This document shows, piece after piece, positions 1,307 through 54,305 of a stretch of DNA of 64,000 bases. The translations under genes were made by a program, and so were the position numbers. The notes beneath the pieces are model-generated. The model saw only the letters and a list, made by a program, of their open reading frames with translations, was not told the origin of the DNA and searched no databases. The stretch covers positions 2,304,001-2,368,000 of the forward strand of contig CAVUAK010000001.1 of the NCBI GenBank assembly GCA_963739455.1, in the 5' to 3' direction. The DNA is from an uncultured Gemmatimonadales bacterium. Lineage in GTDB: Bacteria > Gemmatimonadota > Gemmatimonadetes > Gemmatimonadales > GWC2-71-9. The first letter of the stretch is position 1. Every line of letters starts with the position of its first letter.

Positions 1307-2325
1307 CCGCCCGACAGTATGCGGCGGCTGGTGTGGACCTCAACACCGCCGAGGCCGCAAAGGAAAAGATCGGTCACCTGGTGGCGGGGACGCGCACGGC
1401 GCTCTCGGTGGGGCTGGTCGGCGCCTTCGGCGGCATGGTGCGCGTACCGGCCGGAATGAAGAAGCCGGTGCTGGTGCTGAGCACCGACGGCGTGGGCACC
1501 AAGGTGCTGGTGGCGCTGGAGGCAGGGCGGTTCGACACGGTGGGCGAGGACCTGGTCAACCACAGCGTGAACGACATCCTGGTGCACGCGGCGCGGCCGA
1601 TCGCATTCATGGACTACGTGGCGGGTGCGGCGCTGGGCGTGGAGATGATCGCCGGAATCGTGGAGGGCATCGCGCGCGGGTGCCGCAACCACGGGATGGC
1701 GCTGGCGGGCGGCGAGACGGCGCAGATGCCTGGTCTCTACCGCGAGGGAACGTTCGACCTGGCGGGCACGATCATCGGCGTGGTGGAAGAGGACGCGGCG
1801 CTGCACGGTGACCATGTGGTGCCGGGCGACGTGCTGCTGGGCTACGCCTCCACCGGCCTGCACACGAACGGCTATACACTCGCGCGCCGGATCATCTTCG
1901 AGCAGGCGGGACTCAAGCTGGGCGACACGCTCGGTGACACCGGCAAGTCGGTGGCCGATGCGCTGCTCGCGGTGCATCGCAGCTATGTGCCGACCCTGGC
2001 GCCGGTGCTGGGACAGGTCCACGCGCTGGCGCACATCACCGGTGGTGGCATCGGCGGAAACCTGGTGAGGGTGCTGCCGGAGAACTGCCGTGCGACAGTG
2101 GAGATGAAGTCGTGGGAGCGGCCGGCGCTCTACAAGTTCCTGCAGAAGGCCGGCAACGTGAGCGAGCCGGAGATGCGCGAGGTGTTCAATCTCGGCATCG
2201 GGATGATCGCGGTGCTGCCAGCCGCCTCGGTGGACCTCGCGCGTGCCGCGGCGCGCGTGGCGGGCGTGGAGACGTGGGTCATTGGGAAGGTGGAGGCTGG
2301 TGCACGCGACGTGGCTTTTGCGTGA
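1303..2325 (+). CDS. purM: Phosphoribosylformylglycinamidine cyclo-ligase (AIR synthetase)
   Basis: YAAAGVD, STDGVGTK, GGETAQMPG, GLHTNGY, AHITGGG motifs. Confidence 0.96.
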   Translation: MTARQYAAAGVDLNTAEAAKEKIGHLVAGTRTALSVGLVGAFGGMVRVPAGMKKPVLVLSTDGVGTKVLVALEAGRFDTVGEDLVNHSVNDILVHAARPIAFMDYVAGAALGVEMIAGIVEGIARGCRNHGMALAGGETAQMPGLYREGTFDLAGTIIGVVEEDAALHGDHVVPGDVLLGYASTGLHTNGYTLARRIIFEQAGLKLGDTLGDTGKSVADALLAVHRSYVPTLAPVLGQVHALAHITGGGIGGNLVRVLPENCRATVEMKSWERPALYKFLQKAGNVSEPEMREVFNLGIGMIAVLPAASVDLARAAARVAGVETWVIGKVEAGARDVAFA

Positions 2326-2407
2326 GTCGGCAGTCGGCAGTCGACAGTCGGCAGGCAGTCGTCAGCTGACAGCTTTCTGATGACTGACGACAGACGACTG
2401 ACGACTG
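2324..2407. repeat. Inverted heptamer-repeat element (CAGTCGN)n ... (NCGACTG)n, empty
   Basis: GAGTCGG CAGTCGG CAGTCGA CAGTCGG..CAGTCGT CAGCTG then CTTTCTG..ACGACAG ACGACTG ACGACTG. Confidence 0.88.
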
Positions 2408-3470
2408 AGCCGGAGGCCATGTCGCGCGCTCATCGAGCTGGCGTGGCAATGGCTGGGGCCGTGTAGCTCCGAATCCGCTGGTCGGTGCCGTGGTCCTTCG
2501 AGACGGCAAGATTGTTGGCGAGGGCTATCACGCCGAGTTTGGTGAGCGTCACGCGGAGGCGGTGGCACTGGAGGCGGCAGGGGACGGGGCTCGCGGGGCG
2601 ACGCTGGTTGTCACCCTCGAGCCCTGCGCGCACCAGGGGAAGCAGCCACCGTGCGCGGACCTGGTGCGGCGCGCGGGCATCAAACGGGTGGTGGTCGCCG
2701 TGGCGGACCCGAACCCGGTGGCGGCGGGTGGCTCCGAGTACCTGCGGCAGCATGGCGTCGAGGTGGAGATCGGGCTGATGCAGCGGGAGGCGTCGGCGCA
2801 GAACGCCGCGTTCCTCCATGCGCAGGGCGCGCGGCGCCGGCCCTACGTGGCGCTCAAGCTGGCGACGTCGCTCGATGCGCGGATTGCCGACCGGGAAGGA
2901 CGGTCGCGCTGGATCAGCGGGCCCGAGGCCCGCGCCTGGGTGCAGTGGCTGCGCGCCGGGTTCGACGCGATTGCCGTCGGCAGCAACACGGCACGGCTCG
3001 ACGATCCGTCGCTGACGGTGCGCGGCACGGTGGTGCCGCGACGGACACCGAGGCGGGTGGTGTTCGGCCGGAGCAGCGTCCTGTCGTCGGACGGCGCGCT
3101 GGCTCGCACCGCACGGGAAACGCCGACGACAGTGTTCGTCGCGCCGGGCACCGGGGCCGCACAGTCGGCGCTCGCGACCGCCGGTGTGGAGGTGCGCGAG
3201 ACGAAGTCGCTCGCAGCAGCGCTCGCGACGCTCCGCGACGAAGAGGTGGAGAGCGTGCTGGTGGAGGGCGGGGGACAGCTCGCCGGTGCGCTGCTGGCAG
3301 AGGACCTGGTGGACCGGCTGTACTGGGTACAGAGCCCGCTCTGGCTGGGCGATGGCGTCCCCGCGGTGACGGGACTGCCGGGCACGTCACTGGAACTGGC
3401 ACCGCGCTGGCGTGTGGTCGAGCGTCGCGCACTGGGAGAGGACACGCTACTCGTGGTGGATCGCCGCTAG
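2380..3470 (+). CDS. ribD: Riboflavin biosynthesis deaminase/reductase; 5' part frameshifted (~2430-2450), start uncertain
   Basis: PNPLVGAVV, HAE, TLEPCAH..PPC, KLATSLD, VLVEGGG; first gene of rib cluster. Confidence 0.92.
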
Positions 3471-19032: not shown

Positions 19033-19086
19033 CAACTGCGTGAGGAGGAACCGCAACAGCGTAAGGAGGAACTACAACTGCGTAAG
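19033..19086 (+). repeat. 21-bp tandem repeat (CAACWGCGTRAGGAGGAACNN), about 2.5 copies
   Basis: Direct reading; same unit as at 29404 and 30487. Confidence 0.85.
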
Positions 19087-28433: not shown

Positions 28434-29414
28434 ATGAACCTGCATTCACCGGTGCCGACGATTGTTCCGAGGCCGCGAGACTACCTGGAAACGCGGGACG
28501 GGATGTTCCTCGCGGTGGTGTCGTCCATGGTGGATGACGGGCATGCACTCACGAGCCTGCGTTACGTGCGGCGGGGCGGGGTGCTGGTGAAGCTCGGCAC
28601 GGACGAGGCCAACCAGTACCTGCGTGACCACCGGCCGACATACCTGGCTCATTCGGCGCTGATCGATGCGATGATCCACCTGGTGCCACTCGGCGATGTG
28701 GTGAGAGTCCACCGGCCGGACCTTCGGCTTGCGGCGCTCAGAACAGCGGGAACAGGGAACAGGGAACAGGGAACAGGACACGACCTGGCGAGCCTGGCGC
28801 TGCGGGTGGTGGAGGCGCTCGAGCGCGGAGGGGCGCCGGTGGGGAGAATCGGGCTGGGCGGATCGCTGCTGCTGGGGGCACAGCACGCCGAGTCGGACAT
28901 CGACCTGGTAGTGTACGGCCGGGCAGCGTTCGAGGCGGCGCGGCGGGCGCTCGGGGCCGCGGTGGCGTCGGGAGGGCTCGATGCGCTCGATCGAGGGCAG
29001 TGGGAGGCTGCGTGGACGCGTCGCGGCAGCGACCTGACGCTGGAGGAGTATGTGCGGGCTGAAGTGCGCAAGCTGAACAAGGCGGTGATCGCGGGGACGC
29101 GGGTGGACCTGACGCTGGTGGTGGACAGGGACGAGGAGGTGCCGGAGCGGGGTCCGTTCAGGAAACTGGGGAGGTTGGTCGTGACGGCGGAGGTGGTGGA
29201 TGCGGTGTCGGCGTTCGATCATCCGGCGCGATACCGGGTGCGGCATGACCAGGTAAGCGAGGTGGTGTCGTTCACGCCGACGTATGCGGGGCAGGCGGTG
29301 GCGGGGGAGATCATCGAGGCCGCGGGATGGCTGGAGGTGGATTCGGTGGGGGCACGGAGGGTGGTGGTGGGGACGAGCAGGGAGGCGGGGGGGGAGTACA
29401 TCAAAACAGCGTGA
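28434..29414 (+). CDS. Predicted nucleotidyltransferase (Pol-beta superfamily)
   Basis: GLGGSLLLG..SDIDLVVYG motif; probable C-terminal OB-like region. Confidence 0.78.
   Translation: MNLHSPVPTIVPRPRDYLETRDGMFLAVVSSMVDDGHALTSLRYVRRGGVLVKLGTDEANQYLRDHRPTYLAHSALIDAMIHLVPLGDVVRVHRPDLRLAALRTAGTGNREQGTGHDLASLALRVVEALERGGAPVGRIGLGGSLLLGAQHAESDIDLVVYGRAAFEAARRALGAAVASGGLDALDRGQWEAAWTRRGSDLTLEEYVRAEVRKLNKAVIAGTRVDLTLVVDRDEEVPERGPFRKLGRLVVTAEVVDAVSAFDHPARYRVRHDQVSEVVSFTPTYAGQAVAGEIIEAAGWLEVDSVGARRVVVGTSREAGGEYIKTA
28741..28777 (+). repeat. GAACAGC(GGGAACA)4 array inside a CDS
   Basis: Encodes TAGTGNREQGTG in frame. Confidence 0.88.
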
Positions 29415-29529
29415 GGAGGAACTGAAACAGCGTGAGGAGGAACTGAAACAGCGTGAGGAGGAACAACGACTGCGGTAACCGCCGTTGCAGTTCCTCCTTA
29501 CGCCGTTGCCGTGCCTCCTTACGCTCTTG
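29404..29529. repeat. Palindromic 21-mer element: 3 direct units, centre GCGGTAACCGC, 2 inverted units
   Basis: AAACAGCGTGAGGAGGAACTG x3 (third slightly variant) then CAGTTCCTCCTTACGCCGTTG-type units. Confidence 0.9.
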
Positions 29530-30450
29530 CTACTTCGCCAGGTTCTTCCTGAGGTCTCCCAGGTTCAGCATCGGCACGCCGCCCTCGGTGGGCACGAGGA
29601 TGACCAGGTTGCTGGATGTCTTCATGCCCTCCAGCACCTCGAGATACTGCTTGGTGAGGGCCTCGGGGGTGAGGGTCTGGTTGAGCAGGCGCTGCTGTTC
29701 CGCCTGAAGCCGGGCGACATCGACGCGATGGCGCTCGGTTTCCACCTGCTGTTCCTGGGCAATCTTGGAGTTGATGGCCTGCACCACCTGTTCGGGCGGC
29801 TGGAGATCGCGCAGGAAGAAGGCGGTGATCTCCGCGATGCGGAATGGCGGGCCGCCGGAGCGGGGCTGGGTTTCCAGCGCGGAATCGACCTCGGCCTTCA
29901 TCCGCTCGGCGATCTTGTTGCGATCCGCGATCTGGTTGATGGAGAAGGCGGACATGCCGTCGCGGACGCCGTTCCGGATGGCGTTCTGGACCACACTCTC
30001 GATCTGCTCGTGCCCGCCGATCTCGGTGTAGATGCGGGGCGCCTGCTGGGGGTCGATCTGCCAGCGGACTGCGGCATCGATGTTCATTCCCATCTGTTCA
30101 CTCGAAAGCGCCGGAATGCGCTCGGCCTGCTCGCCGGTGCGGGGCCATTGCTCCTCGCGGGTGGAGAAGCGCTCAACCTCCGACCATGGCAGGACGAACC
30201 GAACCCCGGGGAGCAGCGGCTCCGGCTGCACCTTGCCGAAGGCATGCAGCACGCCAACCTGTCCGGCGTCGATGACCACGAAGGAGCTGGTGGAAAGCGC
30301 CAGCACACCCAGGATGGCCAGCACCAGGCCCACGAGGCGCGTCAGCGCGGCACCGGGGCGAGGTGAGGCGCTGGTCTTCATGCCAGACGCGGTGGCGAGG
30401 ACGATGAGGGAGATGAACAGGAGGACGAAGCCCAGGACCAGGCGTGTCAC
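29530..30450 (-). CDS. SPFH/prohibitin (band 7) family membrane protein
   Basis: FVVIDAGQVGV..FGKV, LRDLQPP, AINSKIAQEQ. Confidence 0.88.
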   Translation of the reverse strand: MTRLVLGFVLLFISLIVLATASGMKTSASPRPGAALTRLVGLVLAILGVLALSTSSFVVIDAGQVGVLHAFGKVQPEPLLPGVRFVLPWSEVERFSTREEQWPRTGEQAERIPALSSEQMGMNIDAAVRWQIDPQQAPRIYTEIGGHEQIESVVQNAIRNGVRDGMSAFSINQIADRNKIAERMKAEVDSALETQPRSGGPPFRIAEITAFFLRDLQPPEQVVQAINSKIAQEQQVETERHRVDVARLQAEQQRLLNQTLTPEALTKQYLEVLEGMKTSSNLVILVPTEGGVPMLNLGDLRKNLAK

Positions 30451-42780: not shown

Positions 42781-43386
42781 CTAGTAAATCACCGCACGGA
42801 TGTTGAGGACGCCGGCATAGGTGCCGGCCGACGTGGGGTAGCCCACGAGGTTGAGGCGAAGGTCGAGCTGGTCGGTGCGATCACCCTGGCGACAGAAGAT
42901 GCCGAGACCGCAGAGGGCGTTCCACTCCCACAGCGCCTGAGTGCCGCCCGCCGTGCCGGTGCCTCCGACGGCATTGCCGTTGAAGGGGGTCCATGTCGTC
43001 AGCAGGGAAGGGTCGCTCCCCGAGGTACGTCCCTCGACCCGCGACGACGGAATGTTCGCACTGCCGGTGGTAAGGGCCTGGGTCGGGTTGCTGAAGTACG
43101 CCACCAGGGACAGCGTGCCACCGAAGAAGAAGGGGAGGTTCCACTCGGTGTAGATCTGCACCGGAGTGGGGAATTGGTTGATGGCGTTGGGCGTGAGGTT
43201 GAGAATCGTCTGGGTGGCGCCCGACATCACCACCACCACCAGCCGGTCGGCGGCAGTGGCGGCGAGGGTAATGGGGACCGGTGCGCCCAAGGTGCCGGTC
43301 TGGGCCACGGCGGGGCGGCCGAACGCACTTGCGAGCAGCAGGGCCAGGGCCATGCCGCTCGCGAGGTACGATCGACGGAACCGCAT
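42781..43386 (-). CDS. Putative minor fimbrial subunit
   Basis: Paralog of neighbours; C-terminal AGTYAGVLNIRAVIY; one Cys pair. Confidence 0.68.
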   Translation of the reverse strand: MRFRRSYLASGMALALLLASAFGRPAVAQTGTLGAPVPITLAATAADRLVVVVMSGATQTILNLTPNAINQFPTPVQIYTEWNLPFFFGGTLSLVAYFSNPTQALTTGSANIPSSRVEGRTSGSDPSLLTTWTPFNGNAVGGTGTAGGTQALWEWNALCGLGIFCRQGDRTDQLDLRLNLVGYPTSAGTYAGVLNIRAVIY

Positions 43387-43405
43387 GTCGACGATCCGCT
43401 ATCGC

Positions 43406-43951
43406 TTACTGAACGATGGCGCGGAGGTTGAGCGTGCCGGTGTAGACGCCGGCGTTGGGCGTCGGCTGGCCCGTGAAATCGAGCCCAAGGTCGAGGTTGG
43501 TGGTCGCGGTTCCATTGAGTGGGGTGGCGTTCACGCTCCAGAGCTGCAGCGACGCACCCGCGACACCCACACCGGCCACGGCGGCAGCAGTGAAGGGGGC
43601 GAAGGCCGCAACGCCGGTGCGACCTACCACCCGGGCGGAGGCAATGTTGTTGGCGCCGCTGGTGAGGGCGGTGGCCGGCGCCGCGAACCAGCCGACAAGG
43701 CGGATCGTGGTGCCAGCGGTGAGGTTCCACGTCGTGGTGACGTTCAGTCCTGGGAACTGCGTCAGGACGCCCGCGCCGATGGCCGGCATGGTGACCGACG
43801 CGGCGCTGGCGCTCAGCGTCAGCGTCGAGGCCTGGGTGGCATTGAGCACGACGGTCGCAGTGTTCGAGCCGAGACCGACCTGGGCCTGCGCTGTGCCGGC
43901 CACGAGGGCCAGCGCACCAACCATCAGGACCTGCTTGATCATCCGATTCAT
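43406..43951 (-). CDS. Putative fimbrial subunit
   Basis: Signal peptide; C-terminal AGVYTGTLNLRAIVQ. Confidence 0.72.
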   Translation of the reverse strand: MNRMIKQVLMVGALALVAGTAQAQVGLGSNTATVVLNATQASTLTLSASAASVTMPAIGAGVLTQFPGLNVTTTWNLTAGTTIRLVGWFAAPATALTSGANNIASARVVGRTGVAAFAPFTAAAVAGVGVAGASLQLWSVNATPLNGTATTNLDLGLDFTGQPTPNAGVYTGTLNLRAIVQ

Positions 43952-43969
43952 TTCAATGGCTCCTGTTGG

Positions 43970-44518
43970 TTACTGAACGACAGCGCGAAGGTTGAGCGTG
44001 CCGGTGTAGGTGCCGGCATTGGGCGGAAGCTGGCTGGTGTAGTCGAGCCGGAGATCGAGGTTCGTGGTCGCGGTGCTGTTGAGCGGCGTCGCGGCGACGC
44101 TCCAGAGCTGGGCGGTACCGGAGGCCACGCCCTGGCCGGCGACAGCGTTGCCGGTGAACGGGACGTAGGCGGCGACGCCGGTGCGACCGAGCACCCGTGC
44201 GGAGGCGATGTTGCCGCCGGGACCGGTCAGCGCCGAAGCCGGCGTGGCGAACCAGCCGACGAGGACGATGTTGGCGCCTGCGGTCAGGTTCCACGCCGCG
44301 GTGACGTTGAGTGACGGGAAGTCGGTCGTGGTGCCGGCGTTGATGGCGGCGATCGTAGTCGAGCCGACGCTGGTGCTGAGCGTCAGAGTCGAGCTCTGGG
44401 TCGCGTTGAGCAGAACCGTACTCGGCGCGGCATTCGACAGGAGGCCGACCTGGGCCGACGCCGTATTGGCGGTCAGGGCAAGGGCGGCGAGGGCGAGCAG
44501 GCTGCGGGTGCTGCGCAT
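43970..44518 (-). CDS. Putative major fimbrial subunit
   Basis: Signal peptide, AGGAG RBS; C-terminal AGTYTGTLNLRAVVQ. Confidence 0.72.
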   Translation of the reverse strand: MRSTRSLLALAALALTANTASAQVGLLSNAAPSTVLLNATQSSTLTLSTSVGSTTIAAINAGTTTDFPSLNVTAAWNLTAGANIVLVGWFATPASALTGPGGNIASARVLGRTGVAAYVPFTGNAVAGQGVASGTAQLWSVAATPLNSTATTNLDLRLDYTSQLPPNAGTYTGTLNLRAVVQ

Positions 44519-44663
44519 GGGGTCGATCTCCTAAAGGGTCGAGCGTGTGACGCGAAAGTGGACGGTTGCCGCTCGCGAAGGCGGCATTTGGGTCGAGGTA
44601 AGTCAATTGATGTGCCGATTGTGGGGTGGCGAGGTGTAGAGGAAGGGGACAGTGGCGAGAAAT

Positions 44664-44754
44664 GAGTCGGCAGTCGGCAGTCGGCAGTCGTCAGGGAGTG
44701 AGCAGTCATCAGCCGACGACTTTCTGCCGACTGCCGACAGACGACTGCCGACTG
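44664..44754. repeat. Inverted heptamer-repeat element, empty
   Basis: GAGTCGG (CAGTCGG)2 CAGTCGT..CAGCCG..CTTTCTG CCGACTG CCGACAG ACGACTG CCGACTG. Confidence 0.88.
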
Positions 44755-44764
44755 CTTCTGTGCG

Positions 44765-44793
44765 TTGACTGGGGGGATGGGCGGGTCTAACTT
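44765..44793 (+). promoter_or_regulatory. Sigma70-type promoter of tRNA-Ser
   Basis: TTGACT-17 nt-TAACTT, about 20 nt upstream of the tRNA. Confidence 0.7.
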
Positions 44794-44812
44794 CTTCCCC
44801 CGCAACAACCTT

Positions 44813-44901
44813 GGACAGGTGGCCGAGTGGCTCAAGGCGCACGCCTGGAAAGTGTGTATACGGCTCAAACCGTATCGAGGGTTCGAATCCCTCCCTGTCC
44901 G
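44813..44901 (+). tRNA. tRNA-Ser (GGA)
   Basis: Acceptor GGACAGG/CCTGTCC, anticodon arm CACGC-CTGGAAA-GTGTG, long variable arm, GGTTCGAATCC. Confidence 0.96.
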
Positions 44902-44906
44902 TGATG

Positions 44907-44951
44907 GAAGACGTGAAGGCGTGAGGACGTGAAGACCAAGGACGTGAGGAC
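44907..44951 (+). repeat. 8-mer array GARGRCGT
   Basis: GAAGACGT GAAGGCGT GAGGACGT GAAGACCA AGGACGT GAGGAC. Confidence 0.75.
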
Positions 44952-45761
44952 TTGAACGAAAAAATCCCGCGTCCTTATCCCTTGCCGTTGCTGGATGACG
45001 AAGGCGCTGATGCTCCGGAGTTACTGCACCTGGATGGTGTGGAGCATCCGGCGCTGGGTGGGGGACGCGACGTCATTGTGGCGCTGCCGCCGGCCGCGGT
45101 GCGGATCCCGGGGCGGCGTTTTCGTGTGCTCTATATGCACGATGGCCAGAACCTGTTCGACCCGGAGACGAGCTTCGCCGGGGACTGGCAGCTAGGGCCG
45201 ACGCTGGCGCACCATGCGCGACTCGGCCGGCACGCGATCGTCGTGGCGGTGCCGAACGGGCGGGAGCGGCGGGTCAACGAATACACGCCGTTCGAGGACA
45301 CGGTGCGGGGCGGCGGTGCCGCCGACGCGTACCTCACCTTCCTTGCCGATGTGCTCAAGCCGTTGATCGACTCCCATTTTCCCACGCTGCCGGGGCGGGA
45401 ATTCACGTCGATCGCGGGGAGCTCGCTGGGCGGACTGCTGAGCATCTACGCGCACTTCCGGCGCCCGGATATCTTCGGGGCGTCGGCGGTGCTGAGCCCC
45501 GCGCTCTGGTTCGCCGACGGGGCAATCCATCGGTACATTACCGACGCACCAGCGGTCGGTGGCCGGATTTATCTCGATGTCGGCATCGAGGAAGGCCCCG
45601 ACGAACTGGCGGATGTGCGCCGGCTCCGCGACCAGCTGGTCGCGCGTGGCTACCGTCTGGACGACACCCTGCGCTATGTCGAGGAAGAGGGCGCCGACCA
45701 CCATGAGTCACGGTGGGGCGGCCGCTTCCGCGATGCGCTTCCGTTCCTCCTGGGGACCTGA
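44952..45761 (+). CDS. Alpha/beta hydrolase (putative esterase)
   Basis: VLYMHDGQNLFD, GSSLGG nucleophile elbow, H.E..W. Confidence 0.88.
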   Translation: MNEKIPRPYPLPLLDDEGADAPELLHLDGVEHPALGGGRDVIVALPPAAVRIPGRRFRVLYMHDGQNLFDPETSFAGDWQLGPTLAHHARLGRHAIVVAVPNGRERRVNEYTPFEDTVRGGGAADAYLTFLADVLKPLIDSHFPTLPGREFTSIAGSSLGGLLSIYAHFRRPDIFGASAVLSPALWFADGAIHRYITDAPAVGGRIYLDVGIEEGPDELADVRRLRDQLVARGYRLDDTLRYVEEEGADHHESRWGGRFRDALPFLLGT

Positions 45762-45767
45762 CCTCAC

Positions 45768-46488
45768 GTGCTTCACGAGCATCACCACTGGCACAGCTCG
45801 CAGCTCGAACCGCGAGATGCACCTCGACGTGTGGGGCCACGCCGGCGCGCGGGTCATCGTGTTCCCCACGACGATGGGGACGTGGCGCGAGTGGCCCGAC
45901 CGGCGGATGCCGGAGGTGCTCTCGGAGCACCTCGAGAACGGCTGGATCCAGATGTACTTCCTGGACCAGGTGCACGACGAGAGCTGGTACGGAAAGCAGC
46001 TGCACCCGGGCGCCCGGGCGTGGCGCCACCTGCAGTACGACGCGTATGTGCACCAGGAAGTGCTGCCGTTCTCGCAGTCGCGGAACAGCAACCCATTCGT
46101 GATCGCGACCGGGGCGAGCTTCGGCGCATACCACGCGGCGACGTTCGCGTTCCGTCACCCGGAAGCGGTGAACCGGATGATCGGGATGAGCGGGCTCTAC
46201 GACGTGAAGCACATGACGGACGGGTACTCGGACGCGAACGTGTACGCGGCCAACCCGTTCGACTTCATCCGGCACGAATGGGAGGCCTCGCGGCTCGAGG
46301 CGCTCCGTCGCATGGACATCATCTTCGCGATCGGCCGGGGCGACCCATCCTACCAGAACAACGTCGATTTCTCCGCGATGCTGTGGGACAAGGGGATCGG
46401 GAATGCGCTCCGGGTGTGGGACGGTCATGCGCATGACTGGCCGTATTGGGAAAAGATGATCAAGACGTATATAGGCGGGAGCGACTAG
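45768..46488 (+). CDS. Esterase family alpha/beta hydrolase (frameshift ~45808)
   Basis: GHAG..VIVFPT, GASFGAYHA, HDWPYW. Confidence 0.85.
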
Positions 46489-46491
46489 GCG

Positions 46492-46576
46492 CAGTCGGCA
46501 GTCGTCGACGTAAGTCGACAGTCGTGAGCTGATTCGCCGATGGCTGACGACTCCCTGACGACTGCCGACTGACGAC
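46492..46576. repeat. Inverted heptamer-repeat element, empty
   Basis: CAGTCGG CAGTCGT..CAGTCGT GAGCTG ... ACGACTC..ACGACTG CCGACTG ACGAC. Confidence 0.82.
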
Positions 46577-46593
46577 CATTGGAGACATGAGCA

Positions 46594-47536
46594 ATGAGTG
46601 AACCGATCAAGGTCGGATTGATGGTAGGCCGCGAGTGGTCCTTCCCACCGGCATTCATCGCCGAAGTAGCAAAGCGCGATGCCGGCGTGGTGGTCGAGTA
46701 CGTCAAGCTCGGCGCGCCGAGGATGGACGGTCCGTGTCCGTGGCGGGTGATCATCGACCGGATCTCGCATGAAGTGCCGATGTACCGCTCGTTCCTGAAG
46801 CAGGCGGTGCTGCAGGGCACGACGGTGGTGAACAATCCCGTTCATGTGGACCGCGGACGACAAGTTCTTCGGTGCCGCGCTGGCGACGTCGCTCGGCATT
46901 GCGCACCCGAAGACGGTGGTGCTGCCGAACAAGGCGTACGTCGCGGGGATCAAGCACGACGAGAGCCTGCGCAACCTGGAGTATCCGCTCGACTGGGACG
47001 CGATCGTGAAGCACATCGGGCTGCCGTGCGTGCTCAAGGATGCGCATGGCGGCGGGTGGCGCGACGTGTACATCTGCAAGACCAAGGACGAGCTGATCCG
47101 CGACTACGACCAGTCGGGGCTCCTGAGCATGGTGCTGCAGGAGTTCGTGCACTGGGAGCAGTTCATCCGCTGCATGTGCCTGGGGCAGCAGGACATCCTG
47201 CCGATGAAGTACGACCCGCGGGAGCGGAAGTACATCGTGGAGGAGGGGCACCTGGCACCGGCGCTCCACGACCGGATCGTGAAGGACTCGCTGACGCTGG
47301 TGCAGGCGCTGGGCTACGACATGAACTCGATCGAATGGGCAGTGAAGGATGGGGTGCCGTACGCGATCGACTTCATGAACCCGGCGCCGGACATGGACAT
47401 CAACAGCCTCACGCCGGAGTACTTCCAGTGGGTGGTGACGCACATGGCGGACATGGTGATCCGCCTGGCGAAGGAGCCGCCGCGGGCGGCGCCGAAGCGC
47501 TGGAACCAGTTCCTCGGCGGGCGGGTAGCGCGCTGA
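46594..47536 (+). CDS. ATP-grasp protein (RimK/glutathione synthase-like; frameshift ~46840)
   Basis: VIIDRISH, VVNNPF..DDKFF, LKDAHGGGW, LQEF, AIDFMNPAPD. Confidence 0.85.
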
Positions 47537-47552
47537 GCCGGAGCGCACGCAG

Positions 47553-48914
47553 GTGACGCCCGAGCTCGGGGACGCGATCGCGCGCTATCACGATGGCCTG
47601 ACGCCGGCACTCGCGGAAGAGTCGGAGGCGTGGCTGTCGGCGCGACTGGCCGACCGGAAGATGATGTTCGGGTCGCGCCCGCTCTGCACGGTGGTGCGCC
47701 CGCGCTTCCTGACGCGTGACGCCTACCGGCAGATCCAGCAGGCGGGTGCGGCCATCGGCCGGGCGTTCACGCGGGCGCACGAGGCGGCGATGGCGCGTCC
47801 CGACGTGCTGGCGCAGTTCCGGCTCACCGACTGGGAAAAGACGCTGCTGGGCGATGATGACGGCCTGCCGGTGCCGAGTCCGCTGGGCCGCTACGATGCG
47901 TTCTTCGCGGAAGACGGGGCGGGGCTCAAGTTCACCGAGAACAACGCGGAGACGCCGGCTGGCTCGGCGTATGGTGACGTGCTGAGCGAGTTGTTCCTGG
48001 CACTGCCGGGGCTCAAGCCGTTCCGCCGGCACTACGATGTGCGCTCCCTGCCGAGCCGGCCGTCGGTGCTGCAGACACTGCTGGAATGTTTCCATGCGGC
48101 GACGGGGCGGCGCGACCTGCCGGTGATCGGGATCATCGACTGGCACGAGGTACCGACGCAGAGCGAGTTCCAGGCATTCAAGGCGTGGTTCGAGTCGCTC
48201 GGCTTCACGTGCGTGATCGCCGACCCACGCGAGCTGGAGTACAGCGGCGGGAAGCTCCGGGCCGGCGGCACGGTGATCGACCTGATCTACAAGCGGGTGC
48301 TGATCCACGAGCTGGTGGGGCGCGAGGGGATGGATCACCCGATGGTGCGGGCGGTGCGGGAGCGGGCGGTGGTGATGGTGAACCCGTTCCGCTGCAAGGT
48401 GCTCCACAAGAAGGCGAGCCTGGCGGTGCTGAGCGACGAGCGGAACGCGGCGCTGTTCGATGCACCGATGCAGCAGGCGATCGCGGCGCACATTCCGTGG
48501 ACGCGGGTGGTGGAAGCGCGGACGACGACGTGGCGGGGCAAGGACGTGGACCTGCTGGACCATGTCGCGCGGCATCGCGCGCAGTTCGTGCTGAAGCCGA
48601 ACGACGACTACGGCGGCACGGGGATCGTGCTCGGCTGGGAAGTCGATGACGCGGTATGGGCGCGGGCGCTCGCGGCCGCGATCGAGGCGCCGTCGGTGGT
48701 GCAGGAGCGAATTCACCAGCCGAGCGAGGCTTTTGGGGCCTGGATCGATGGTGAACTAGTCGTCAGTGACAGGATCGTGGACACGGCACCGTACGTCTTT
48801 GGTGGTGCCTATGTTGATGGATGCCTTAGCAGGATCTCCACGGCTGCGTTGGTCAATGTCACCGCGGGCGGTGGGAGCACGATTCCTACTTTTGTCGTTG
48901 AGAGTCGGCAGTAG
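47553..48914 (+). CDS. Circularly permuted ATP-grasp / glutathionylspermidine synthase-like ligase
   Basis: GRYD, ENNAETPAG, IYKR, LKPNDDYGG.G..G, VQE, NVTAGG. Confidence 0.78.
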   Translation: MTPELGDAIARYHDGLTPALAEESEAWLSARLADRKMMFGSRPLCTVVRPRFLTRDAYRQIQQAGAAIGRAFTRAHEAAMARPDVLAQFRLTDWEKTLLGDDDGLPVPSPLGRYDAFFAEDGAGLKFTENNAETPAGSAYGDVLSELFLALPGLKPFRRHYDVRSLPSRPSVLQTLLECFHAATGRRDLPVIGIIDWHEVPTQSEFQAFKAWFESLGFTCVIADPRELEYSGGKLRAGGTVIDLIYKRVLIHELVGREGMDHPMVRAVRERAVVMVNPFRCKVLHKKASLAVLSDERNAALFDAPMQQAIAAHIPWTRVVEARTTTWRGKDVDLLDHVARHRAQFVLKPNDDYGGTGIVLGWEVDDAVWARALAAAIEAPSVVQERIHQPSEAFGAWIDGELVVSDRIVDTAPYVFGGAYVDGCLSRISTAALVNVTAGGGSTIPTFVVESRQ

Positions 48915-49456
48915 GGTCGTCAGTCGGCAGAGGGTCGTCAGTCGTCAGTCGTCAGTCGTCAGTGAGTCGACAGTCGTCAGCTGCCCGGTGAGAGTGATTG
49001 GTTCCGTGCGAGGGCGTGCAGCATCCGGCTGATTTCGTCGATCCGCTGGTCCATCAGTTGATGGTCAGATTGGCTGATGAGGTCGAGCTCTCGCGCAATG
49101 TAGCACTTGGGCACGGAGTTCGTGCAGCGAGCCTCGCGCAATGAGGATGAAGCGCTGGAATTCGGCCGGGGTGCCACGGCCGGAGCCCTCAGCGATATTT
49201 GAGACGACGGATACGGCGGCACGGCGGCACTGGGCGGTAAGACCAAACATCTCGCCTCGCGGGAAGCGTGCCAGTGACCCGATACAACTCCACGACCATT
49301 CGAGTCGAGAGTTGCCAGACCTTCAGGCGGCGGAAATCTCCCATGGGGCACAGTAGCGAACGGAACGATCGCAGTGCACACCGGGGGGCCGCTATGCGGT
49401 GCCTTTTCTCGCGACTCACGACTCTCTCACGACTGACGACTGTCGACTGCCGACTC
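48902..49456. mobile_element. Candidate heptamer-arm cassette carrying a four-helix-bundle gene
   Basis: Left arm (CAGTCGT)n 48902-48983, right arm (ACGACTS)n 49404-49456, 11-bp terminal inverted repeat GAGTCGGCAGT; mobility itself is inferred. Confidence 0.5.
48977..49344 (-). CDS. Four helix bundle protein (23S rRNA IVS-protein-like family); two frameshifts (~49262, ~49105), error or pseudogene
   Basis: FRRLKVWQ..YRVT, E.FGLTAQCRRAAVSVVSNIAEGSGR, F..IARGSL.E, RML..L. Confidence 0.9.
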
Positions 49457-49458
49457 CC

Positions 49459-50579
49459 ATGAAACCACCATCGCTGACCATCGGCATCGAAGAGGAATAC
49501 CAGATCATCGATCCCGACACCCGGGAGCTCAAGAGCTACATCACGGAGATCCTGAAGGAAGACTCCATGGTGCTGGGCGAGGTGAAGCCGGAACTGCACC
49601 AGTCGATGGTGGAGGTGGGCACGAAGGTGTGCCACACGCCGGCCGAGGTGCGGGCGGAACTGGTCCGGCTCCGCGGCCTGGTGATGGGGCTCGCGGGGAA
49701 GAACGGCCTGCGTATCGCCGCGGCCGGGACGCACCCGTTCTCGTCGTGGATGACGCAGGAGATCACGCCGCTCGAGCGCTATGCCGGCGTGCAGGAGGAC
49801 ATGCAGGACCTGGCGCAGCAGCTGCTGATCTTCGGCACGCACGTCCACATCGGCATCGAGGACCGGGAGTTCCTGATCGACTGCATGAACGTGGTGCGCT
49901 ACATGCTGCCGCACGTGCTGGCGCTGTCGACGAGCTCGCCGTTCTGGCTGGGGCGGCAAACGGGGCTGAAGTCGTACCGGAGCGTCGTCTTCCGGAACTT
50001 CCCGCGCACCGGGCTTCCGCCCACGATGGAGTCGTGGAACGAGTTCTCCACGCTGGTGGACGGGATGGTCAGCACCAACTGCATCCCGAACGCGTCCAAG
50101 ATCTGGTGGGACGTGCGGCCGAGCTGGAGCTACCCGACGCTCGAGTTCCGCATCTGCGACGTGTGCACGCGGGTGGACGAGGCGGTGTGCATCGCGGCCA
50201 TCTTCCAGGCGATCATCGCCAAGCTGTGGAAGCTGCGGCGCGACAACATGACGTTCCGGCAGTACGGCGCCGGCGCTCATCGAGGAGAACAAGTGGCGCG
50301 CGGTGCGCTACGGCCTCGACGGCAAGCTGATCGACTTCGGGCAGCAGCGCGGAACTGCCGGCGCGCGACCTGATCCGCGAGCTGATCGAGTGGTTCATCG
50401 GCGACGTGGTGGACGAGCTGGGATCGCGGAAGGAAGTGGAGTACGCGTACAAGATCCTGGCGGAGGGGACGAGCGCCGACCGGCAGCTGCGGACGTTCCA
50501 GCAGACGGGGAACCTGCACTCGGTGGTGGACCAGCTGATCGCGGAGACGGAAGAAGGAGTCGTGAGTCGTCAGTCGTGA
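49459..50579 (+). CDS. Carboxylate-amine ligase (YbdK / GCS2 family; frameshifts ~50270, ~50350)
   Basis: [52 protein letters not shown]. Confidence 0.92.
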
Positions 50580-50604
50580 GTCGTGAGTCAGTCGTCAGTC
50601 GTCA
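50557..50604 (+). repeat. (SAGTCGT)n heptamer array
   Basis: Forms the VVSRQS-stop C-terminus of the ligase. Confidence 0.88.
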
Positions 50605-50627
50605 CTGTGAGAGGGCACCGAGCATAC

Positions 50628-51412
50628 ATGAGTCATTCCAAGCCATTGATCGGTGTGACGACGCAGTCGCTGCAGGCGGTGGAGGGGATTCCTCCAACGA
50701 TGCCGCCGTCGTGGATCATGAACCGCATGTACCTCGACGCGCTGGTGCGGGCGGGGGCGGCACCGGTGCTGCTGCCGCTGCTGGCGGACCAGCCGGCGGT
50801 GCTGCGGGAACTCTATGAGCGACTGGATGGCCTGCTGCTGCCGGGCGGGGTGGACATCGAGCCCTCGACCTTTGGCGAGGAGCGGCATGCGTTGCTGCGC
50901 CGACACGGACCCGCCGCGCGACGTGGTGGAACTGCAGCTCGCGCGCTGGGCGCTGGCGGACGGGATGCCGGTGCTGGGTCTCTGTCGCGGGCTGCAGATC
51001 CTGAACATCGCCGCGGGCGGGACGCTGTTCCAGGATGTCGCGGCGCAGCGGTACGGGTCGCAGAAGCACGACTATCGAGCCGCCGGAGCATACGCGCGAC
51101 TTCCTGGCGCACGAGGTGGAGCTGGTGCCGGGCTCGCGGCTGCATGCGCTGGTGGGTGCGTCGTCGGCACCGGTGAACAGCATGCATCACCAGGGGATCC
51201 AGCGGCTGGGTTCCGGTCTCGCCGCCACGGCGCATGCGCCCGACGGGCTGATCGAGGCGATCGAGGGATCGGGCGAAGGCTTCGCGCTCGGGGTGCAGTG
51301 GCACCCGGAATCGCTGGAGCCACACGACGACACATCCCGGGCACTGTTCCGGGAGTTCGTGGCGGCAACCCTCGAACCGATGCGGGGTACGAGAAGGCCA
51401 ATCAGCGGGTAG
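50628..51412 (+). CDS. Gamma-glutamyl-gamma-aminobutyrate hydrolase family (peptidase C26; frameshifted)
   Basis: [30 protein letters not shown]. Confidence 0.9.
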
Positions 51413-51447
51413 TCCCCTTCATTCTCCACACCAACCCGAGGCTTCGC

Positions 51448-52803
51448 ATGCGCGCACTGGCTGTCCTACTCCTGGCGTCGCTCGCGATCGGGACACCGGC
51501 GACGGCGCAGGTCCTGACGTCCCCGCCCAAGGGCATCATCCTCCCCAACTACGACATGGTGCGAATCGGCCAGACTGAAGCGATCGAGTCGGGCGCCGTC
51601 GTCGCGCGCGCCACCGGTCCGCTGGCGAACGTCTACAACCCGGCCGGCCTTGCCGCCGCCGACAAGACGGCAATCAACGGCAGCTCCACCGGCTACCAGG
51701 CGGTAACCCTCGGTCTCGAGGGCGTGGGCAAGAATGTCGGGAGCAGCCGCATCTCGAACCTCGGCGGATTCCTGGGCGCCGTCATCGCCAACCCCGTGAT
51801 CAAGTCGAGCAAGTGGCGGCTGGGCTTCTCCATCTTCTCGCCGCTCGGCTGGGAGCCGGGCACGCTGTCAGGCGCCGTGGCGGCGCAAGTCTCCGGGCAG
51901 GACGCGACGCTGGATTACCGCACACAGGTGCGGCTGCGGGCGCAGATCCCGTCGGTGGCGGCCGGCATCAACGTTTCCAAGTCGTTTCGCCTTGGCGTTG
52001 GCTTCCAGGTTCCCATCGTGAGCATCCAGCAGGAGCAGCAGACGACCTTCCTGGCGAGTGATGCGAATGAGGCCTCGACGGTGACGCGAGCATTCGCCGT
52101 GGACGGAAGCACCTGGCTGGTGCGCGGCACGCTGGGCGCGCAGTGGGATGTGTCATCGAAGCTGTCGCTGGGCCTGATGGCCGAGACGGCTACGGCCCGC
52201 CTGTGGGGCAGCAGCTTCTATTCCGACCAGGTCACGACGGCATTTGGCACGGGATTCGAGGCACTGAACTTCCGCGACCCGAATGCCCGGCTGGAGTACA
52301 AGCTCCCGTTCCTGTTGTCGGGCGGGGCGGCGCTGAGGCTGGGCAAGGTGCAGCTGGAGGCGGACGCGCGCTGGTACGGCAAGGTGAACGAGTTCGACAT
52401 GTACACCAGCGACAGCACCGGGATCGGGTTGCGCCAGATGGATGGAGGAGTGCCGGAGCATTCGCCAGTACTGCTGGCACCGGTGACGATGACGTTCACG
52501 TCGGTGGTCAACCTGGCGATCGGTGCCAGCATTCCGGTGTCCAAGAGCTGGCAGCTGCACCTCGGTTTCAGCACCGACCAGTCGCCCCTGCCGGACACGG
52601 AGCAAATGTTCCGCAAGGTGAGCCTTATTGGTGCAACGGCGGGCGTGTCGTTCAAGGCGGCGCGGTTGTCGGGGGCCTTTGGCCTGGGATTGCAGACCGG
52701 CAAGTCGCCGACGACGGTGGTGGGCATCTCGCCCACAGAGGTCGACACCAAGCTGACGGTGAAGACGTTCCAGCTGCTGTACTCGATCGCGTATACGTTC
52801 TAG
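51448..52803 (+). CDS. Outer membrane beta-barrel protein (OmpP1/FadL-like)
   Basis: Signal peptide, YNPAGL motif, C-terminal YSIAYTF. Confidence 0.72.
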   Translation: MRALAVLLLASLAIGTPATAQVLTSPPKGIILPNYDMVRIGQTEAIESGAVVARATGPLANVYNPAGLAAADKTAINGSSTGYQAVTLGLEGVGKNVGSSRISNLGGFLGAVIANPVIKSSKWRLGFSIFSPLGWEPGTLSGAVAAQVSGQDATLDYRTQVRLRAQIPSVAAGINVSKSFRLGVGFQVPIVSIQQEQQTTFLASDANEASTVTRAFAVDGSTWLVRGTLGAQWDVSSKLSLGLMAETATARLWGSSFYSDQVTTAFGTGFEALNFRDPNARLEYKLPFLLSGGAALRLGKVQLEADARWYGKVNEFDMYTSDSTGIGLRQMDGGVPEHSPVLLAPVTMTFTSVVNLAIGASIPVSKSWQLHLGFSTDQSPLPDTEQMFRKVSLIGATAGVSFKAARLSGAFGLGLQTGKSPTTVVGISPTEVDTKLTVKTFQLLYSIAYTF

Positions 52804-52856
52804 GAACTGCGGGAACGGCACAGCGGGACAGGGAACAGGCAACAGGGAACAGGGAA
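52803..52856 (+). repeat. GGGAACA array with GAACTGCGGGAAC leader
   Basis: Directly after the TAG stop. Confidence 0.75.
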
Positions 52857-52949
52857 TTGACGCGCCGGGCCTGAACGCCCCACCTTCAGGGGTTCAGCAC
52901 CGCGGGTTCGATCCGCTCTTCCCCATTCCAATTGCCTGGACCCTTCCCC

Positions 52950-54305
52950 ATGCGCCTCCTGGCTGTGGCCCTGCTGGCGGTATGCTCGATCGCCTCGAGA
53001 CTCTCGGCGCAGATCCTGACCGCACCGCCTGAGGGGATCATCATCCCCAACTACGACCTCGTCCGCATCGGACAAACCGAGGCACTGGAGTCGGGTGCGG
53101 TGGTGGCGCGCGCGCGCGGGCCACTCGCCAACGTCTACAACCCCGCGGGTCTTGCCTCGGCAGTGAGTACGGAGATCAACGGCAGCTCGACGGGGTTCCA
53201 GCTGACCTCGCTCGGCCTCAAGGGTGTGGGTCCCGATGTCTCCAGCAGCCGCATCGTGAACCTGGGTGGCTTCCTTGGTGTAGTCATTGCCAACCCGGTC
53301 ATCAAGACGACGAAGTGGCGGCTCGGCTTCTCGGTGTTCTCACCACTGGGATGGGAGCCGGGGATTCTCTCCGGCGCGGAGGCCGGCGCCGTAGCAGGAC
53401 AGCAACTCGCGCTCGACTACCGGACGCAGGTCCGGCTGAGGGCACAGATCCCCTCCATCGCCGCCGGGCTCAACGTGTCGAAGCGTTTCCGGGTCGGCGC
53501 CGGGTTTCAGGTGCCGATCGTCAACGTCCTGCAGCAGCAGCAGAGCACGTCGCTGTCGTACGATGCCACCGAGGCGGCGACGATCACGCGCACGTTCGCG
53601 GCAGACGGCAACGTCTGGCTGGTCCGGCTGATCGGCGGGGTGCAGTGGGACCCGATCCCGGCGGTGTCGCTCGGGCTCACCGCAGAAACCGGCACGGCAC
53701 GGTTGTGGGGAAGCAGTTTCTACAGCGACCAGCTGAACACCGCGTCCGGGAATGGCTTCACGACACTGAGCTTCCGGGACCCGAGCGCGCGGATGGACTA
53801 CAAGCTTCCGTTCGCGCTCAAGGGTGGCGTGGCGGCGAGAATCGGCAAGGTGGAGGTCGAGGCCAACGTCCGCTGGTACTCGAGCATCGGCGCATTCGAC
53901 CTGTACCGCAGTGACAGCGTCGGGATCGCACTGTCGCAGCAGGCAGGCGGCACGCCGGAGACCGATGCCGTCGTCCTCCCGCCAGTGACGCAGGCGTTTC
54001 GCTCGGCGGTGAACCTTGCCTTCGGCATGCGCATTCCACTTACGCGAAGCTGGCAGCTGCACCTGGGTGTCAACAGCGACCAGTCGCCGCTGTCGGACCC
54101 GGACCAGTTGTTCCGCCAGGTGACGTTCGTCGGCGGGACGGCTGGGTTGTCGTTCACGGTGGGGAGCCTGTCCGGCGCAGTAGGGCTCGGGTTCCAGACG
54201 GGTGCATCCCCGACGACGCAGATCAGCATTCCTCCGGCGACGGTGGATGTCGGCCTCACCGTCCGGACGTTCCAGTTGCTGTATTCGATTGCGTACACGT
54301 TTTGA
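52950..54305 (+). CDS. Outer membrane beta-barrel protein (OmpP1/FadL-like), paralog
   Basis: Colinear with the previous gene; YNPAGL; C-terminal YSIAYTF. Confidence 0.72.
   Translation: MRLLAVALLAVCSIASRLSAQILTAPPEGIIIPNYDLVRIGQTEALESGAVVARARGPLANVYNPAGLASAVSTEINGSSTGFQLTSLGLKGVGPDVSSSRIVNLGGFLGVVIANPVIKTTKWRLGFSVFSPLGWEPGILSGAEAGAVAGQQLALDYRTQVRLRAQIPSIAAGLNVSKRFRVGAGFQVPIVNVLQQQQSTSLSYDATEAATITRTFAADGNVWLVRLIGGVQWDPIPAVSLGLTAETGTARLWGSSFYSDQLNTASGNGFTTLSFRDPSARMDYKLPFALKGGVAARIGKVEVEANVRWYSSIGAFDLYRSDSVGIALSQQAGGTPETDAVVLPPVTQAFRSAVNLAFGMRIPLTRSWQLHLGVNSDQSPLSDPDQLFRQVTFVGGTAGLSFTVGSLSGAVGLGFQTGASPTTQISIPPATVDVGLTVRTFQLLYSIAYTF

Follow-up and report, generated by a model that had tools for sequence, protein, structure and literature searches.

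A REPtron gene is flanked by inverted repeats of its own family, is accompanied by many dispersed gene-less copies of them and seldom moves (PMC3733652). The intervening sequence (IVS) of 23S rRNA in Coxiella, Leptospira and Brucella has a terminal stem that encloses an open reading frame (ORF) for the protein S23p; in Coxiella, tandem GACAGAT heptamers stand before the ORF and the IVS is cut by RNase III (PMC4990558). A protein of the same fold, Avd, belongs to the diversity-generating retroelements (DGRs); it is a pentamer whose five protomers all take part in binding an RNA stem-loop (10.1101/2023.10.23.563531). Tandem repeats of similar unit length form a further class, which includes the heptamers of Xanthomonas (GGGAATC), Nostoc (GGGGA(C/T)T) and Beggiatoa (TAACTGA) and the paired octamer sites of Geobacter (PMC4692102, PMC4679880, PMC2700814). 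The subject here is a gene of the four-helix-bundle (FHB) family PF05635/TIGR02436 in an uncultured Gemmatimonadales bacterium (source genome G000; other G numbers are compared genomes), which lies between two inverted heptamer arrays, or arms, in a 64,000-nt stretch of DNA (G000:C1:2304001-2368000, the window). Structures of S23/four-helix-bundle proteins have been available since 2006, and to our knowledge no function has yet been given to them. The cyanobacterial STRR are a related class of short tandem repeats. Judged from sequence, the observation made at this locus is real and general: FHB genes lie between inverted arms, and each is matched by its own family of gene-less arms dispersed through the genome.

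The architecture parallels that of the REPtrons (RAYT/REP, REPIN) and TIRtrons, in that there are several repeat-specific gene/repeat pairs per genome and each gene lies within its own repeat family, with many gene-less copies elsewhere. Unlike the REPtrons, which carry an HUH/Y1 tyrosine transposase and palindromes tagged with GTAG/CGTC, the focal cargo is solely an all-helical, Avd-like PF05635 protein, and each arm, a tandem array of 7-9-mers, pairs with the one opposite. The 23S IVS shares a terminal stem (predicted here) around an ORF of the same family, but the focal locus and nearly all other loci examined are at junctions of protein genes and not in rRNA, and the focal gene is under purifying selection and possibly has its own promoter. 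The arms resemble the published heptamer and octamer repeats in their unit lengths, their roughly four units, their intergenic position, their convergent inverted pairs and the placing of the G-rich strand after stops and the C-rich strand before starts, whereas the published descriptions, as far as accessible, name no partner gene. DGR Avd has the same fold, with a profile match of 92%; however, the focal protein is below the cut-off of the Avd model NF033474 (35.5 vs 80 bits), its neighbors are ligase genes and PF00078 has no match in the G000 assembly (84% complete). Insertion sequence (IS) elements and MITEs (miniature inverted-repeat transposable elements) also have inverted ends and gene-less derivatives, which are clearest here in G043, but in the present case no transposase or target duplication is seen, the flanks are overwritten, the arm units change within a genus, and near-identical copies at several loci are lacking (paralogs share 63-65% of their DNA in G018 and 60-84% in G043). 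The cassette thus lacks what defines a REPtron, and it is not an IS element, a DGR or an rRNA IVS.

Repeats and protein family have each been described before; the link between them apparently has not. Apart from the Coxiella IVS, no account that connects FHB genes with repeat arms turned up in the literature searched, which left most subscription journals and preprint supplements uncovered. In the supplement of PMC4692102, GGGAATC repeat 15 overlaps the start of XCC0516, the crystallised FHB protein, and the main text of that paper nowhere mentions “four helix” or “helix bundle.” Two other sources, PMC8700078 and 10.1101/2024.02.27.582315, merely list an FHB protein in their accessible parts.

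The association of FHB genes with arms was measured by scoring the upstream flank against the reverse-complemented downstream flank, with a threshold of 30. All five FHB genes of G000 are armed, each with a different unit. At the level of the order, armed loci make up 30 of the 31 scorable (of 33) in one set, 33 of 36 (of 37) in another and 20 of 23 in a further one. In other phyla the fraction is 62/77, the scorable part of the best 80 among 597 loci found with one peptide pattern, and on plasmids it is 4/6. Shifted windows used as controls are armed in 1/137, 1/58 and 0/31 cases, cross-paired flanks in 12/608, 8/240 and 11/128, and flanks compared in direct orientation in 9/77, 2/31 and 0/17; neither of two true DGR Avd loci is armed (scores 18 and 21). 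An Azospirillum 23S rRNA gene (NC_016586.1:13410-15721) encloses an FHB gene between inverted heptamer arms. It is therefore very probable, from such sequence comparisons, that an FHB gene together with its inverted arms constitutes a cassette. The preliminary description of the locus had proposed looking for this enrichment, and had named two outcomes that would speak against a cassette, namely a gene fixed at this site in relatives without arms and no enrichment of FHB genes beside arms; neither was found.

Armed FHB genes were also seen in other settings. On viral contigs, whose phage status is putative, 16 of 17 FHB loci are armed, which is a possible route between hosts. Two cyanobacterial plasmids have armed FHB genes within CRISPR-Cas operons (cas6-cas4 in L364, cas10-cmr3 in L367), and this may reflect insertion at junctions rather than a role with Cas. 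Genes for GxxExxY proteins (PF13366) in G055, G026 and G018 (L186, L188 and L190) have inverted flanks of their own, with different motifs of about 9 nt, and are possibly a parallel class of cassettes with another protein.

The main point, absent from the preliminary description, is the dispersed family that goes with each cassette. Matches were counted for ten arm units, half of them across 12 genomes and half across 6, with unit patterns derived from cassette arms and with overlapping matches; the single cassette of G004 was left uninspected. Every one of the 16 genome-by-family cells with the cognate cassette has 13-102 matches, while of the 74 cells without it 68 hold at most three, two hold 4-6 and four hold 9-39, these last being the exceptions to the REPtron-like pattern of a gene within its own repeat family. 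The focal family, for example, counts 102 in G000, 93 in G008, 31 in G007, 18 in G003 and at most 4 elsewhere. In the DNA sampled for the reverse comparison, 246 of 366 arrays in G000 match the arms of its own cassettes, split 93/58/54/30/11 over the five; close relatives, with which cassettes are shared, give 255 and 193 matches. Own-cassette matches number 43/67 in G038 (best foreign genome 19), 38/50 in G018 (14) and 31/49 in G026 (10), and 37/51 in G006 (best foreign 32), a biased sample in which 6 of the 20 regions were picked after hits were seen. Across 61 genomes the number of FHB genes correlates with the number of arrays (rho 0.54; by family 0.68, 0.08 and 0.56).

One could consider the protein to be passive cargo, the repeat hairpins being a host feature that turns over alone, with FHB genes surviving in the loops, where they disturb the operon least, and the arms being homogenised to whichever family is abundant. 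Such an account is in keeping with the excess of empty over filled pairs in G000 (78 vs 5), with the existence of families that have no cassette, with repeats described apart from any partner gene in PMC4692102, PMC4679880 and PMC2700814, and with the GxxExxY genes, of which 3 of 7 scorable loci reach 30 or more. It predicts, however, that cassettes would share the abundant families, but of 148 pairs of cassettes from the same genome only 4 have arms in common, where random arrays would lead one to expect 15.5 (binomial P 0.0004, for pairs that are not independent). It also predicts mixed cargo, and the 431-459 nt size class in G000 is FHB in five cases out of five. Finally, 12 of 13 genomes without FHB genes have at most 30 periodic hits, against a median of 83.5 in genomes with them. 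Passive cargo is accordingly improbable.

The arms form a genome-wide class with a clear polarity. G000 contains 524 arrays of period 7-9, of which 373 are mostly intergenic; periods 5, 10 and 11 served as the null for array counts and gave 0-1 vs 88, GA periodicity being unusable since the same arrays score on it. Purine-rich (G-type) arms have their inverted partner downstream in 63/161 cases and upstream in 4/161, and pyrimidine-rich (C-type) arms have it upstream in 60/212 and downstream in 3/212. Most of the 95 inverted pairs (78) have no more than 120 nt between their arms; the size range of 431-459 nt comprises five pairs, and these hold the five FHB genes. The outer end of the arm is at a same-strand stop in 145/373 arrays, a number that rises to 185 when opposite-strand starts are counted as well, compared with 64 in the mirror test at the inner end, all with gene calls that cover 80% of G000. 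Empty pairs that could be assigned (n=41) are convergent in 16 cases and divergent in 2, while the corresponding numbers for 1122 spacers are 118 and 183. Polarity of this kind has already been described for the Xanthomonas and Nostoc repeats (PMC4692102) and for the TAACTGA repeats of Beggiatoa (PMC4679880). For empty hairpins, a fold-based measure of how near stop and start are brought to each other, applied to 23 junctions, proved too noisy for use.

Placement of this kind could also suit a regulon, in which the FHB pentamer would bind RNA sequence-specifically, regulate translation, processing or termination and have no part in copying; the arms would be its binding sites, spread by ordinary slippage and gene conversion and kept by selection, and its own arms would serve autoregulation. 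The one-to-one match of protein and repeats and the purifying selection on the gene are explained equally well in this way, and the position of arms at stop and start codons fits it. Units across phyla share an N-A/G-G triplet (G at position 3 in 116/120 registered units, a result that registration favours), and array length peaks at 4 units (150/373), which resembles the reading of repeats by TRAP. A repeat-binding regulator, itself unidentified, was proposed by MacGregor in 2015 (PMC4679880). Against a regulon, whole families, each with tens of sites, distinguish species within a genus, and one family takes the place of another at a given junction; complex 60-nt arms are dispersed as copies, and arms also enter coding linkers. 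Since site-by-site selection is unlikely to produce these patterns, we regard a regulon as a rather unlikely explanation.

The way in which gene-less arms arise can be read from the irregular features that they share with cassette arms. Among 91 gene-less arms of the focal family, 35 have the slip unit of the focal left arm and 18 have its inner CAGCTG, a signature found in 2/281 arms of other families. The arms of G043 are non-periodic and about 60 nt long, and within 400 kb of that genome one family has three empty pairs of 185 nt (MITE-like elements of two 60-nt arms at L292:1465-1654, L280:17322-17504 and L278:16775-16961); one empty G043 pair retains the 3' tail of the gene. These elements offer the most favorable case for locating the ends of the unit. 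Because gene-less arms share these non-periodic signatures, they are evidently copies of cassette arms and not products of slippage.

Copies need a template, and the cassette arms could be nothing but that: a master copy spread by host recombination or template switching, with the protein doing something else, such as stabilising or moving its own cassette, and not acting on dispersed arms. Family tracking and the shared non-periodic signatures fit this explanation, which needs no catalytic role for the protein. It leaves unexplained why the gene-bearing copy should prevail over many empty ones as master, why families with two cassettes are rare and why arm period follows the protein clade, and it seems distinctly unlikely. 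As to the period, a change between 7 and 8/9 is needed 5 times on the protein tree, vs at least 8 times in 2000 shuffles (46 labelled rows of 53, with 12 same-locus orthologs dropped). This shows that period travels with the gene; it is not evidence of co-evolution.

The history of the cassettes is visible where the same junction is compared across relatives. Of 60 relatives, 15 have the gene upstream of the focal cassette, and the junction was read in every one of them. The focal junction is filled in G000, in G003, where the gene is intact, and in G008, which is outside the set of 15 because its contig ends within an arm. It is empty, with stop/start overlap and no repeats, in G001, G010 and G015; it holds small arm pairs of other units in G006 and G026, a single C-type arm in G011, short spacers of 11-38 nt in G005, G009, G023, G032 and G043, and a 102-nt spacer in G041. 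Gene order differs in G013 and G057. The suggestion that arms and gene behave as an insertable unit is borne out by these filled, empty and arms-only alleles (most junctions being empty or arms-only) and by gain, loss, replacement and flipping across genomes. At one junction the FHB gene of G000 and G008 is opposite in orientation to that of G001, G003, G006 and G007; at a second, the FHB gene of G006 belongs to a different clade and has arms of 8-mers; at a third, the gene of G001 is flipped, comes from another clade and has arms of its own; and one G003 cassette has lost the 5' half of its gene with the arms intact. As to gain or loss at the focal junction, trees of the flanking genes neither unite nor separate the filled genomes with good support (supports 21-63); all deeper branches are unfilled. 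Contigs assembled from sequencing runs at 80% likeness represent relatives, and one of them, a filled allele, runs across both junctions with 292 diverged letters instead of 294; among the runs searched, none had more than 13% of the words of the locus. G007 and G008 have an FHB cassette at the junction that corresponds to L185 (G000:C1:695300-696700); in G000 the place is taken by an unrelated gene with CxxCH-like motifs, and no more than a trace of an arm is seen.

Within the genus, ortholog cassettes are inherited, with dN/dS of 0.08-0.17 in the 7 measurable pairs of 8, and changes of unit hit both arms together. Since FHB paralogs within a genome are just 60-84% identical, moves of the whole cassette must be rare. 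At the focal junction the insert substitutes for the last codons of the upstream gene, vs the stop/start overlap of empty alleles, and no target-site duplication is visible by comparison with empty alleles, of which the closest is about 83-90% identical in the flanks, so that a short, decayed duplication could have escaped notice. In G006 compared with G000, arms of other families replace sequence at the same junctions and enter coding linkers. The arms thus overwrite junction sequence instead of inserting cleanly. In the cassette on contig C3 of G000 (177616-177642 and 178200-178220), both convergent host genes finish in nine identical bases before the arm; complementarity there reaches into coding sequence, and other species have different matched ends.

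The reading preferred here, to which we give an even chance, likens the system to a REPtron: an Avd-like pentamer would recognise the arms of its own cassette and promote the copying of these arms. Because each FHB gene tracks its own genome-wide repeat family, the protein likely helps to copy those repeats. The arms would pair in RNA, forming a predicted stem of about 40 bp that loops out the cargo and leaves no more than about 20 nt from the upstream stop to the downstream start; with the stop so near the start, the host operon would be expected to tolerate the insert. A stem of this type in 23S rRNA is the IVS, which RNase III takes out. The FHB protein, as an Avd-like pentamer, would bind the arm stem and recruit host polymerase or recombination functions, and these would write the arm sequence over the DNA beside stop and start codons, by replacement and with no target duplication. 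Arm copies would reach dozens of other junctions, the whole cassette moving rarely, and the FHB protein, though no transposase, would do for its arms what RAYT does for REP/REPIN repeats. The Avd-like fold, Avd's grip on RNA and the lack of reverse-transcriptase matches in G000, G018 and G026 suggest a non-catalytic specificity factor.

The structural evidence comes from a model of the G003 ortholog (pLDDT 97), for which the closest folds are XCC0516, BT_0352 and Avd. It matches 2GSC, the XCC0516-like fold, with Z 18.8 and rmsd 0.6 over 100 aligned residues, and Avd (4DWL) with Z 14.5 and rmsd 1.5 over 98 residues. The FHB-family structures 2GSC and 2RLD each contain 5 chains.

A number of observations weigh against copying promoted by the protein. 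The fold search with the G003 model found no catalytic fold, that is, no nuclease, transposase or polymerase above the generic level of helical bundles. No reverse transcriptase (RVT_1, PF00078) was matched in G000 or in the two most arm-rich genomes, G018 and G026, and 6 of 61 genomes have one; the chemistry of copying is therefore left unexplained. Some families have no cassette, such as GGGAACA in G000 (29 matches), GAGGGGT in G006 (39; 97% complete) and, in G007 (60% complete), the focal family (31) and ARCRGTR (9). Family counts contain the arms of the cassette itself (which make up 6 of 13 for one G008 family) and use patterns taken from cassette arms, and the genomes are related, so no tally is independent. 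Own-genome matches are weak in G030 (10/33), G046 (6/25) and G044 (5/16), and the correlation between FHB and array counts is absent in family f2 (rho 0.08, n=12). G035 (95% complete) has 171 periodic hits and no FHB gene even at E<=1. Recent jumps of whole cassettes, which near-identical paralogs would reveal, were not seen, and the focal copy itself may be a pseudogene. Two further candidates were dropped: partnership with a reverse transcriptase was set aside on the lack of RVT_1 matches in G000, G018 and G026, and a transposon with fixed terminal inverted repeats was rejected, as units differ at every locus and there is no target duplication.

A broader proposal, which we put forward tentatively and with some doubt, is that FHB proteins are dedicated factors of a repeat-writing system that works with no transposase and no reverse transcriptase. 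Each pentamer would read one family of 7-9 nt and host enzymes would copy it to gene junctions; the heptamer repeats of bacteria from several phyla would be the empty products, ORF-bearing 23S IVS would be cassettes that landed in rRNA, and DGR Avd would have been recruited from the same stock. Two old puzzles would then merge, the role of the FHB protein and the question of what makes and turns over heptamer repeats, including those of Xanthomonas, cyanobacteria, Beggiatoa, Geobacter and Bacteroidota. If the protein helps to copy repeats, the origin of a widespread and so far unexplained class of bacterial repeats would be accounted for; if it drives the copying, there is transposase-free propagation of repeats together with a natural set of small oligomers of varied nucleic-acid specificities. 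The matched pairs of protein and repeat, ten families in one genus, make binding specificity testable by swapping partners. Should one of the weaker readings hold, the 23S intervening sequence would still be one particular form of a junction cassette that is common.

The focal locus (Table 1) illustrates the details. The G000 assembly comprises 3.6 Mb at 67% GC, and the operon at window positions 44952-51412, which is conserved across the order, consists of two esterases, RimK-like and ATP-grasp-like ligases, a YbdK/GCS2 ligase and a peptidase C26, with several genes frameshifted in this assembly. The FHB gene lies antisense between the two co-oriented ligase genes, as was first noted, although the ATP-grasp-like neighbor has a weak PF14403 match. 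The middle piece of the gene matches PF05635 with E 2.5e-20 (73.1 vs a cut-off of 33.8 bits), and the protein matches TIGR02436 with 68.2 vs 24 bits. The upstream gene's final codons and TAG stop (48912-48914) are within the left arm, and the CAGCTG that ends this arm (48978-48983) supplies, by overlap, the TGA stop of the FHB gene (minus strand, 48979-48977). The right flank, with TTTTCTC and a heptamer array, is likewise as initially reported, and neither a transposase nor a target-site duplication is seen at the locus.

Table 1. Features of the focal locus and related arms (window positions)
Feature	Position	Strand	Evidence or remark
Upstream host gene, ATP-grasp-like ligase, 453 aa	47553..48914	+	PF14403 E 3e-4, below cut-off
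Left arm (purine-rich, G-type)	48902..48983	+	(C/G)AGTCG(T/G) tandem heptamers, 2-nt slip unit, inner CAGCTG
FHB gene, ~121 codons, in three frames	48977..49344	-	PF05635/TIGR02436 profiles
TACTGT, 5 nt before ATG, possible -10 box of a leaderless promoter	49350..49355	-	sequence
Small hairpin and T-run on the inner side of the right arm; CCGC/GCGG stem kept in G003 and G008	49388..49410	+	
TTTTCTC	49404-49410		right flank, on the inner side of the right array
Right arm (pyrimidine-rich, C-type)	49412..49456	+	reverse complement of left arm; 2 nt upstream of downstream ATG
Downstream host gene, YbdK/GCS2 carboxylate-amine ligase	49459..50373	+	frameshifted in assembly, runs to ~50579
Paired gene-less arms, focal family (empty hairpin)	44665..44755	unstranded	
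Paired gene-less arms, focal family	2325..2408	unstranded	CAGCTG signature present
Paired gene-less arms, focal family	46489..46576	unstranded	begins at stop codon, in the operon of the focal cassette
Lone G-type arm, focal family, at end of GCS2 gene	50557..50604	+	

The outer ends of the arms form the perfect 11-bp inverted repeat that had been described (GAGTCGGCAGT at 48902-48912, with its reverse complement at 49446-49456). The predicted stem, however, uses not this outer register but a 43-nt inner one, 48932-48976 with 49412-49456 (pair probability about 0.95). Folding of the region against 20 shuffles gives z = -3.96 on the plus strand and -2.78 on the minus strand, and flanks equally complementary are found in just 7 of 1005 ordinary short genes of G000. 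On the operon strand, pairing of the arms would reduce the stop-start distance from 544 to about 19 nt. No rRNA match was found in window 44000-53000, where the flanking genes are protein genes, and Rfam gave no family for the cassette.

The two frameshifts in the focal gene, also in the preliminary description, are single-base insertions near 49270 and 49102, seen by comparison with intact orthologs in G003 and G008. Against these orthologs the focal gene has a dN/dS of 0.08-0.13. The assembly has a background of 0.36 or more frameshifts per kb, with 50 broken genes among 154 conserved ones; at this rate two in 370 nt have P of about 0.008, or 0.04 for any of the five FHB genes. Since this rate is a lower bound, both sequencing error and very recent decay remain as explanations. 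As to expression, a TANNNT box precedes 19/67 FHB starts in the order vs 115/2310 host genes, an enrichment inflated by the several candidate starts allowed for FHB genes, and no full sigma-70 match was found in the focal promoter region.

Flanking genes elsewhere are provisionally labelled, for instance, pdxA, purD, mutM, tdk and coaE. Three tandem secreted paralogs of about 180-200 aa lie at window positions 42781-44518; two were scanned, with a Pfam match in neither. A tRNA at 44813-44901 adjoins an empty arm pair plus an 8-mer arm. A family of 21-nt repeats at 19033-19086 and 29404-29530 consists of three degenerate heptamers, and the same family makes up the arms of one G008 cassette and the outer part of the arms of the G000 C3 cassette.

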